The position numbers and the translations under genes are program-made. From Candidatus Altarchaeum sp. (GTDB lineage: Archaea > Altiarchaeota > Altiarchaeia > Altiarchaeales > Altiarchaeaceae), in NCBI GenBank assembly GCA_018260615.1, contig JAGWDQ010000002.1, positions 1 to 16,051 on the forward strand: DNA of 16,051 bases. The letters are read 5' to 3'. Below the pieces are notes generated by a model. The model saw nothing but the letters and a program-made list of their open reading frames with translations. It ran no database searches and had not been told where the DNA came from. Numbering within the stretch: position 1 is the stretch's first letter; each line of letters opens with the position of its first letter. This document shows positions 947 through 1,161 of the stretch, piece by piece.

Positions 947-1161
947 AAATTGGGATAATTATTTTGTGAGAGATTTTTTAAAAATCTGCTTAAAAATTAT
1001 ATTTTTCAAGCAAGGTAAATTATTATGTTTTTAACCTCACTCCGTTCGGATATTTACTCATTTCATTCGTAAATAACCTCACTCCGTTCGGATATTTAGT
1101 CGCTTTGCTCCTAAATGACAAAAATTGTGAGTTTATAGACAAACATTAATTATCCCAATTT
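947..1161. mobile_element. Possible MITE-like segment (215 bp) bounded by a 15-bp perfect inverted repeat and containing repeat array B
   Basis: AAATTGGGATAATTA (947-961) and TAATTATCCCAATTT (1147-1161) are exact reverse complements. No target-site duplication and no second copy are visible. Confidence 0.35.
1032..1115. repeat. Repeat array B: four tandem 21-nt hairpin modules (5-nt arm, 11-nt core, 5-nt arm)
   Basis: taacc-TCACTCCGTTC-ggata, tttac-TCATTTCATTC-gtaaa, taacc-TCACTCCGTTC-ggata, tttag-TCGCTTTGCTC-ctaaa. Cores start at 1037, 1058, 1079 and 1100. Confidence 0.92.

Follow-up and report, generated by a model that had tools for sequence, protein, structure and literature searches.

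GA-flanked hairpins in a Candidatus Altarchaeum contig are probably parts of short double-hairpin mobile elements

GA hairpins and double-hairpin units in the window

The window analyzed in this study is a 16,051-nt stretch of Candidatus Altarchaeum DNA (contig JAGWDQ010000002.1, positions 1 to 16,051). It is contig C2 of a 148-contig archaeal assembly, G000 (2.23 Mb, 33% GC, 87% complete), and carries archaeal genes for PCNA, an Sm protein, an archaeal D-aminoacyl-tRNA deacylase, and methenyl-H4MPT cyclohydrolase. Our subject is a small hairpin with a GA-flanked core, of which a preliminary description of this DNA had listed 13 intact copies. All 13 were recovered with the same positions and sequences: at 24, 4105, 4977, 5124, 5170, 9617, and 11400 on the + strand, and at 1037, 1058, 1079, 1100, 4749, and 4791 on the − strand. 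The complete hairpin, hereafter H2, is 21 nt long and consists of an outer stem of approximately 5 bp, GA, a 2-bp purine-pyrimidine (R-Y) stem, a loop of 3 to 4 nt, R-Y, GA, and the returning outer stem (for example, TCTCCGAACGAAGTGAGGTGA).

Four complete hairpins occur in a row on the − strand, with the exact 21-nt period that had been reported for positions 1037-1110. The first of the four is TTTAG-GA-GC-AAA-GC-GA-CTAAA (1095-1115), followed by TATCC-GA-AC-GGA-GT-GA-GGTTA (1074-1094), TTTAC-GA-AT-GAA-AT-GA-GTAAA (1053-1073), and a second copy of the 1074-1094 sequence (1032-1052). Three base pairs differ between the hairpins at 1053-1073 and 1095-1115, and all three differences are compensatory. 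The row is carried by a 254-bp MITE (miniature inverted-repeat transposable element) on the − strand (927-1180), whose inverted-repeat ends are conserved as GGTGCTGACCC...GGGATGAGTACC, with GGGATAATTA next on the inner side. Seven further complete copies of this MITE are 212-214 bp long and contain two hairpins only; the copies in the window and on contigs C70 and C135 are longer by 42 nt. Perfect 8-bp target duplications were found in three of ten copies (C53, C105, and C98). The 21-nt grid had been presented as characteristic of the family; it arises locally, from successive 21-nt hairpins within this MITE. The 1032-1115 region is a passenger site in a conventional MITE and an atypical setting for the GA hairpins.

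Elsewhere in the window, H2 forms the 3′ part of double-hairpin units that begin with an AT-rich hairpin, H1. Two 42-nt units lie side by side on the − strand, TTTCCGGGCTTGCCACGGAAA + TCTCCGAATGAAATGAGGTGA at 4786-4827 and TTTCAGAACTTGCTTCTGAAA + TGCGCGAACGAAGTGAGGGCA at 4744-4785. They occur antisense in the last codons of a DUF429-like open reading frame (ORF; 4212-4847). In the sister species represented by assembly G001, the corresponding protein ends ...VVIPKI* (181 aa); the window version has 211 aa, its last two residues having been exchanged for a 32-residue tail read from the units. Further units lie on the + strand at 4945-4992 (ATGA/ACTT outer stem and a GAGCGAAGCGA core at 4977-4987), 5093-5139 (GAGCGAAGCGA core at 5124-5134), 5140-5186 (GAGCAACAGCGA core at 5170-5181), 9591-9632 (42 nt, TTTCAAAGCTTGCCTTTGAAA + TACAGGAACGAAGTGAGCGTA), and 11368-11415 (core at 11400-11410), the last being followed by an inverted half copy at 11416-11432. 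At 1-40 on the same strand, a unit cut by the contig start comprises the 3′ part of an AT-rich hairpin and ATATCC-GAGCAACAGCGA-GGTTA; it belongs to a longer repeat that is present at many contig ends.

Two H2 copies in the window are split in the loop. The first, at 3963-4129 (+), reads CTCC-GAACGA, then 151 nt, then AGTGA-GGTG; the insert consists of other hairpin modules and ends in an intact unit (4079-4120, core at 4105-4115). It lies in a hairpin cluster downstream of dnaJ (3905-4150) that is bounded by inverted repeats, CTCACACAAAG...TTGTGTGAG. Many contig ends carry the same repeats, suggestive of a further MITE family that has hairpin units as cargo. The second split copy, at 11467-11599 (−), reads ATCC-GAGCAA, then 117 nt with four other hairpins, then ACAGCGA-GGTT. 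The material inserted into this split hairpin is a 28/56-nt array at 11477-11591, built from a second hairpin type (AAAAATGCTYGWAGCATTTTT) that has feet of the TATC...GATA type.

Copy number and location of the GA hairpin cores

The loose pattern GARYNNNRYGA had 15 matches in the window versus 6.1 ± 2.4 in shuffled sequence, and none of 200 shuffles reached 15. Three matches additional to the reported cores (5979, 6951, and 13493) fall in coding sequence and are probably due to chance. In the G000 genome as a whole, the commonest core, GAACGAAGTGA, was present in 157 copies as compared to 0.77 expected. The four other main cores were over-represented 10- to 800-fold: GAGCAACAGCGA (52 copies, 0.06 expected), GAACGGAGTGA (47, 0.38 expected), GAGCGAAGCGA (38, 0.19 expected), and GAATGAAATGA (34, 3.2 expected).

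Using a regular expression for the main core types, we counted 455 family cores in the G000 genome. Of these, 406 (89%) lay outside ORF calls that, although crude, cover 83% of the genome and leave 17% as non-coding DNA. The genome-wide search and the comparison of intergenic with coding DNA that had been proposed for this motif thus yielded approximately 455 cores, 89% of them intergenic, far above expectation.

Anatomy of the unit and covariation in the inner stem

H1 immediately precedes at least 229 of the 455 cores. This hairpin has a fixed base, TTTY...RAAA, and a variable upper stem that is almost always perfectly paired despite its high variability: 94 distinct sequences had at least six perfect pairs. 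Units measure 39-42 nt or 44-48 nt and read H1-H2 in the 5′ to 3′ direction; their ends are not inverted repeats of each other. Inverted ends and target duplication, the classical marks of a MITE, were found for the element represented at 927-1180, with duplications in three of its ten copies, and not for the 39-48-nt unit. Units are found alone, as H2 + H2 doublets, arrayed in tandem, nested within each other, and carried along by larger inverted-repeat MITEs. Neighboring units share the same orientation in 154 cases versus 33 in opposite orientation.

The commonest outer stems of H2 are CTCC/GGTG, ATCC/GGTT, and ACAC/GCGT. The inverted arms, described previously as roughly 5 bp, are usually interrupted at their third pair by a conserved mismatch, T.T or A.C. 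When copies were anchored on the outer arms only, the flanking GA...GA, claimed to be invariant, proved to be the most conserved part of the hairpin common to the 11-mer and 12-mer core classes. The GNA loop holds for approximately two thirds of the copies; AACA, AAGA, AGGA, or AAA takes its place in roughly a third.

The inner stem covaries, as had been proposed, and does so across all four R-Y stems. Among 423 genome-wide copies in family context with R-Y on both sides, 394 have Watson-Crick pairs at both inner positions: AC/GT in 213, GC/GC in 136, AT/AT in 31, and GT/AC in 14. The intermediates comprise 16 copies with a single A.C and 13 with a single G.T; double mismatches are essentially absent. 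Every change is a transition that keeps R-Y, and the same inner stems are found on differing outer stems. Of 599 cores anchored on GA...GA and the outer stem, 322 were fully paired, as compared to 94.5 ± 8 in shuffles. In the eleven window copies, 82.9% of cells pair (61.4 ± 3.4 when shuffled), both sides change in six of seven pairs, and the covariation score is 0.61, a value reached in none of 500 shuffles, versus 0.22 when shuffled; slid controls gave 0.05-0.21. These shuffle tests overstate significance, as the copies are related by descent, so that their compensatory changes need not be independent events.

Gain, loss, and loop insertion of units

Units are gained or lost whole between sister species without target duplication. 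We compared filled and empty sites between G000 and G001, taking in nearly all of the G001 sequence. Intergenic spacers that bear units in the window have short counterparts without units in the syntenic G001 contig. At 9591-9632, for example, the two genomes align on both sides of the 42-nt unit, which is missing in G001. Approximately 14 clean single-unit sites were found, some of them filled in G000 and others in G001, with differences of 42 nt (six sites), 45 nt (two), 48 nt (two), 49 nt (two), 44 nt (one), and 54 nt (one). No target duplication beyond 1-2 ambiguous nt was detected at these sites, one of which directly follows the apparent 3′ end of a tRNA gene. In one array, G000 has five units where G001 has a single unit. 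A 48-nt double-hairpin unit also lies in frame within tnpB on contig C42, in one of six otherwise co-linear copies of that gene's element. Much of the intergenic difference between the sister species is attributable to units.

Movement through an RNA or reverse-transcribed intermediate, as proposed for the mitochondrial double-hairpin elements (DHEs) of Allomyces, would also fit units without target duplication. The analogy with organellar DHEs comes from a summary of Paquin et al. 2000 (PMC2800124). Orientation-specific insertion into a hairpin loop is more simply explained at the DNA level, and we regard this route as highly improbable.

The preferred landing site of a unit is the loop of an H2 already present, where it takes the orientation of the host hairpin. 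Specifically, 49 matched loop splits were found versus six in a reversed-sequence control, with the two halves flanking one or more complete units; approximately 27 of the splits are distinct in sequence and hairpin content. Hairpins are cut either at GAAC-GA^A-GTGA or, in GAGC-NNNN-GCGA, behind the first or second base of the loop (also GAGC-A^NNN-GCGA). The inserted GA cores were on the strand of the host hairpin in 23 of 24 cases (23:1). The 5′ half of a split hairpin joins H1 and not the 3′ half of another hairpin, so the splits represent insertion rather than reciprocal site-specific recombination; a loop recombination resembling that of integron attC sites was rejected for this reason.

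It is also conceivable that the units are non-functional by-products, copied within MITEs and by slippage or unequal crossing-over, with pairing kept by repair of one arm against the other. Indeed, many copies ride in larger repeats, such as the MITE at 927-1180, other copies of which have the 8-bp duplications, and the CTCACACAA...TTGTGTGAG-bounded cluster at approximately 3905-4150. Tandem arrays differ in unit number between species, and H1 stems that are nearly always perfect over 94 sequences fit arm-to-arm correction. Such correction would, however, erase the conserved T.T or A.C mismatch of the outer stem and the unpaired GA/GA. Moreover, lone units with clean boundaries are found in unique DNA where repeats do not flank them, and insertion into the H2 loop recurs with differing inserts in a fixed orientation. 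Based on these observations, we consider a by-product origin unlikely.

Orientation to genes and a possible role as RNA

In 103 spacers, the purine-rich strand of H2 runs in the direction of both neighboring genes, and in 97 it is antisense to both; the neighbors are convergent in 72 and divergent in 48. This random orientation argues against a role at the mRNA level and fits selfish DNA that avoids promoters. It also disfavors an RNA-binding protein as the recognizing factor, one of two options put forward in the preliminary description.

The hairpin might nevertheless act as RNA, for instance as a transcript motif for an L7Ae-like protein, a stabilizer, a terminator, or a ribosome-binding-site switch, and have been spread by regulatory selection. 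The tandem GA/GA is a hallmark of kink-turns (K-turns) and K-loops, and GAGGTGAT, the 3′ arm found most often, matches Shine-Dalgarno, which the 5′ arm CTCC can mask. In addition, at least the 21 specified bases of the pattern searched for are shared by sites closely upstream of apparent start codons in unrelated genomes, namely two orthologous Sedimenticolaceae sites and one in an archaeal metagenome-assembled genome (MAG). The orientation counts, 103 versus 97, do not favor a transcript. The 3-nt bulge that defines a K-turn is missing: the outer stem abuts GA/GA on both strands, and we therefore rejected a K-turn or K-loop bound by L7Ae. A Shine-Dalgarno donor is likewise not supported, because units do not lie at ribosome-binding distance from ORFs, with one or two of the 455 copies so placed relative to a long ORF. 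Finally, G.U-type intermediates are not favored over A.C, and no Rfam family matches the window at E values up to 1. Overall, we judge a function as RNA quite unlikely.

Distribution among genomes

We searched 61 genomes of the class. The genus was represented by four assemblies (G000-G003, 65-87% complete, in which repeats assemble poorly), and these contained 150, 109, 40, and 38 matches to the degenerate pattern CCGARYNNNRYGAGG; controls gave 0-1. A fifth hairpin-bearing genome, G060, belongs to another family-level lineage (WOR_SM1-like) and contained 31 matches, with CCGAGTYATACGAGG dominant. Its dominant variant, CC-GA-GT-YAT-AC-GA-GG (C33:3180-3194, C66:16634-16648; L100:1503), has mainly a GT/AC inner stem and is accompanied by a few Altiarchaeum-type copies; the H1 + H2 unit is present there as well. 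Because this lineage carries its own variant, the family is older than the genus. The other 56 genomes were at or near background, a few of them modestly above controls; the two inspected, G043 and G016, contained just scattered unrelated sequences. In a motif scan of reference genomes, matches came almost only from Ca. Altiarchaeum/Altarchaeum (CG2_30_32_3053, Altiarchaeales A3, and GA_1_1) and one WOR_SM1 contig. Among viral contigs, there was one isolated match, on a contig of 48% GC, which is probably due to chance.

Single copies of TCCGAACGAAGTGAGGT with its flanks were observed in unrelated DNA at L046:5224-5246, L056:5798-5820, L096:1561-1583, L051:5748-5770, and L206:9970-9988. These represent two orthologous Sedimenticolaceae sites, an archaeal MAG, a 35% GC contig assigned to 'Gammaproteobacteria', and a viral contig. 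At three of them, an apparent start codon follows 8-9 nt downstream, and GAGGT would be placed to act as its ribosome-binding site. The outside copies reflect either chance or a wider class of hairpins that mask ribosome-binding sites.

A mobile-element interpretation and the evidence bearing on it

Based on the abovementioned findings, the GA core is probably the conserved second hairpin of non-coding, mobile double-hairpin elements of approximately 39-48 nt in Ca. Altiarchaeum. The filled and empty sites and the fixed-orientation loop insertions fit the recognition of a folded single strand. The elements have clean boundaries and a covarying core, and their self-targeting points in the same direction. 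As single-stranded DNA, the purine-rich strand would fold into H2 with sheared G.A pairs, many copies presumably forming the CGAAG/GCGAAGC mini-hairpin. The folded H2 may then serve both as a cis signal and as the preferred target of a trans-acting, strand-specific nuclease or transposase, which would, like IS200/IS605 TnpA or RAYT, have single-stranded DNA as its substrate.

Several results weigh against this interpretation, in addition to the shared descent of the copies. At the DNA level, the 5′ flanks of 13 clean sites had no common target oligonucleotide, unlike those of IS200/IS605, and a few 'empty' sites retain a GAGGT-like remnant, such that some differences may represent imprecise loss. 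A self-comparison of the genome for a longer parent with H1/H2 ends yielded just a TnpB element and internally repetitive genes, and the Y1/RAYT domain PF01797 was not found in the four genus assemblies. Single-strand transposition tied to replication might predict a strand bias along contigs, and no such bias was detected across 40 contigs (chi-square p = 0.52). At the level of structure, nearest-neighbor folding as DNA or RNA revealed no special stability of H2 and no difference between strands: values were −0.3 to −2.5 kcal/mol, and z-scores were mostly near 0 (−1.8 to +0.7) on both strands, with parameters that model sheared G.A mini-hairpins poorly. The 13 G.T and 16 A.C intermediates show that pairing alone picks out neither a strand nor DNA over RNA. 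Moreover, approximately a third of the loops (AACA, AAGA, AGGA, and AAA) are not of the stable G...A type. The strand of the units was also uncorrelated with GC skew or gene strand.

The assertion that only the purine strand can fold draws on the invariant GA...GA and on published chemistry; computed folding does not distinguish the strands. In our data, in vivo formation of the hairpin on one strand is best supported by the fixed-orientation hits on a strand-specific hairpin loop. As for the chemistry, melting temperatures are 76.5 °C for d(GCGAAGC) and approximately 70 °C for both GCGTAAGC and GCGTTAGC, and an A-initial loop type, GCAAAAGC, has no melting transition according to the same review (PMC13037366). 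The core GAGCGAAGCGA (38 copies) contains GCGAAGC exactly, the GCGTAAGC and GCGTTAGC variants are present, and the commonest GA core holds the C-GAA-G loop and closing pair. A majority of copies have only this CGAAG mini-hairpin core, and A-initial loops are without it; GCGNAGC is exact in the GAGCGAAGCGA, GCGTAAGC, and GCGTTAGC copies. The family differs from the mini-hairpin DNAs (GCGNAGC or d(GCGNNAGC)) in that its commonest inner stem is A-T plus C-G rather than G-C plus C-G, and in that approximately a third of its loops begin with A. By analogy, mini-hairpin chemistry would explain an unusual stability of the C-GAA-G core as DNA, not all of the loop types.

Search for an enzyme

The preliminary description had suggested an HUH/Y1 nuclease and a tnpA or RAYT gene flanked by the motif. 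Neither is borne out: no PF01797 gene was found in the four genus assemblies (65-87% complete), and nine TnpB matches are without the flanking motif. Y1 genes do occur in other families of the class. An insertion sequence of approximately 1340 bp that encodes TnpB only is present in six copies of 91-96% identity (C13, C24, C42, C69, C70, and C119; L003-L008). Its ends are 15-bp inverted terminal repeats, GAGTGATTTCGCTTT, that are unrelated to H1 or H2. With no Y1 gene found in these assemblies, TnpB unflanked by the motif, and unrelated ends on its element, a link to IS200/IS605 is not supported.

A YhcG-type PD-(D/E)XK nuclease (PF06250) was present in 2-7 copies in the five hairpin-bearing genomes (5-7 in four of them) and in five of the 56 other genomes of the class, with 1-2 copies each. 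The G000 genes lie on contigs C147, C91, C76, C15, and C140. Two of these five are within 200 nt of a unit, as compared to 14% of all genes, and four loci inspected in three genomes had no unit nearby. The co-distribution is suggestive; it spans at most two independent lineages, shows no consistent linkage, and constitutes a weak lead.

It is possible, if doubtful, that an undescribed single-strand-specific enzyme of the Altiarchaeia, other than Y1/HUH, recognizes the GA hairpin, has it as its preferred target, and moves the 39-48-nt units without duplication. If so, the units would be among the smallest mobile units known and would represent a new transposition system. Ca. Altiarchaeum can be harvested as a nearly pure biofilm; this and the defined features of the hairpin should make the responsible enzyme findable in a pull-down with a 21-nt oligonucleotide.

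Comparison with described elements

The nearest described elements are the PATEs and SMRs of Haloquadratum walsbyi, which are likewise archaeal, transposase-less, very short, and present in high copy number. A 52-bp terminal-only PATE has two near-terminal palindromes, generates no duplication, and is apparently mobile; insertion of SMR-A repeats occurs within palindromes that lie near the termini of other elements (PMC3119063). The units share with PATEs the palindromes near both ends and the lack of inverted terminal repeats and of target duplication, and the palindrome-targeted insertion of SMR-A resembles their own loop-targeted nesting. However, PATE palindromes match IS605-type transposons in the same genome and require a short target oligonucleotide, whereas no insertion sequence with matching ends, Y1 gene, or target consensus was found in the genome of the units. 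The fixed 4-6-nt target that should flank the left end of an IS200/IS605-derived PATE, inserted 3′ of it, is absent from the 5′ flanks of the 13 sites, and the cuts of nested units lie in the H2 loop. SMRs are approximately 110 bp and have inverted terminal repeats, unlike the 39-48-nt units, and the descriptions of PATEs and SMRs include no GA/GA-flanked mini-stem.

The family had also been called REP-like. The REP/BIME elements of bacteria are associated with RAYT (Y1, HUH) transposases (PMC2817692, PMC3333891). Both families are short imperfect palindromes that number in the hundreds, are intergenic, and form clustered mosaics; REPs are thought to be recognized as single-stranded hairpins and serve as targets for other mobile elements. 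The comparison stands insofar as the GA hairpins are intergenic, high-copy, mobile, and retain their pairing. It falls short in the GTAG signature, the target oligonucleotide, and the HUH/Y1 gene. Instead of a GTAG 5′ tetranucleotide, the 5′ context is AAAWNTCC, ACAC, ATGA, or TTTAC. The units are mostly direct (154 versus 33) rather than alternating as in BIMEs, the host is archaeal, and no RAYT was found in the four genus assemblies.

Mitochondria contain DHEs (Allomyces) and repetitive hairpin-forming elements (sponges) (PMC2800124). These elements similarly comprise two adjacent short hairpins of AT-rich or GC-cluster types, with no duplication and no encoded enzyme, and they vary in presence between close species and form tandem and multiple-hairpin clusters. 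They are organellar, have no sequence relation to the units and no GA/GA motif, and have not been reported to target their own loops; the resemblance is probably one of form only. Overall, the GA-hairpin family resembles known selfish DNA, with an unusually well-defined structural core and a self-targeting habit. A 2024 census reported that Ca. Altiarchaeum hamiconexum has the highest archaeal MITE density, 146 per Mb, and did not describe the GA-hairpin family (PMC11602168); our literature search found no description of it. REPs and PATEs are known to shape prokaryotic genomes, and their archaeal forms and enzymes are poorly known. The units also affect annotation, as they break assemblies at contig ends and create spurious or extended reading frames.

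Other differences between the window and related genomes

Two stretches of the window, 4747-5898 and 7020-8584, are missing from the syntenic G001 contig, where their neighbors are 62 and 141 nt apart, respectively. The first holds unit clusters and an ORF at 5319-5621 (weak DUF4258), and the second holds an ORF at 7534-8055. At the end of the window (15689-16051), a 96-nt tandem repeat of 3.8 copies with 82% matches lies within an open-ended ORF (15582-16049). Arrays approximately 70% identical to this repeat occur in G002.

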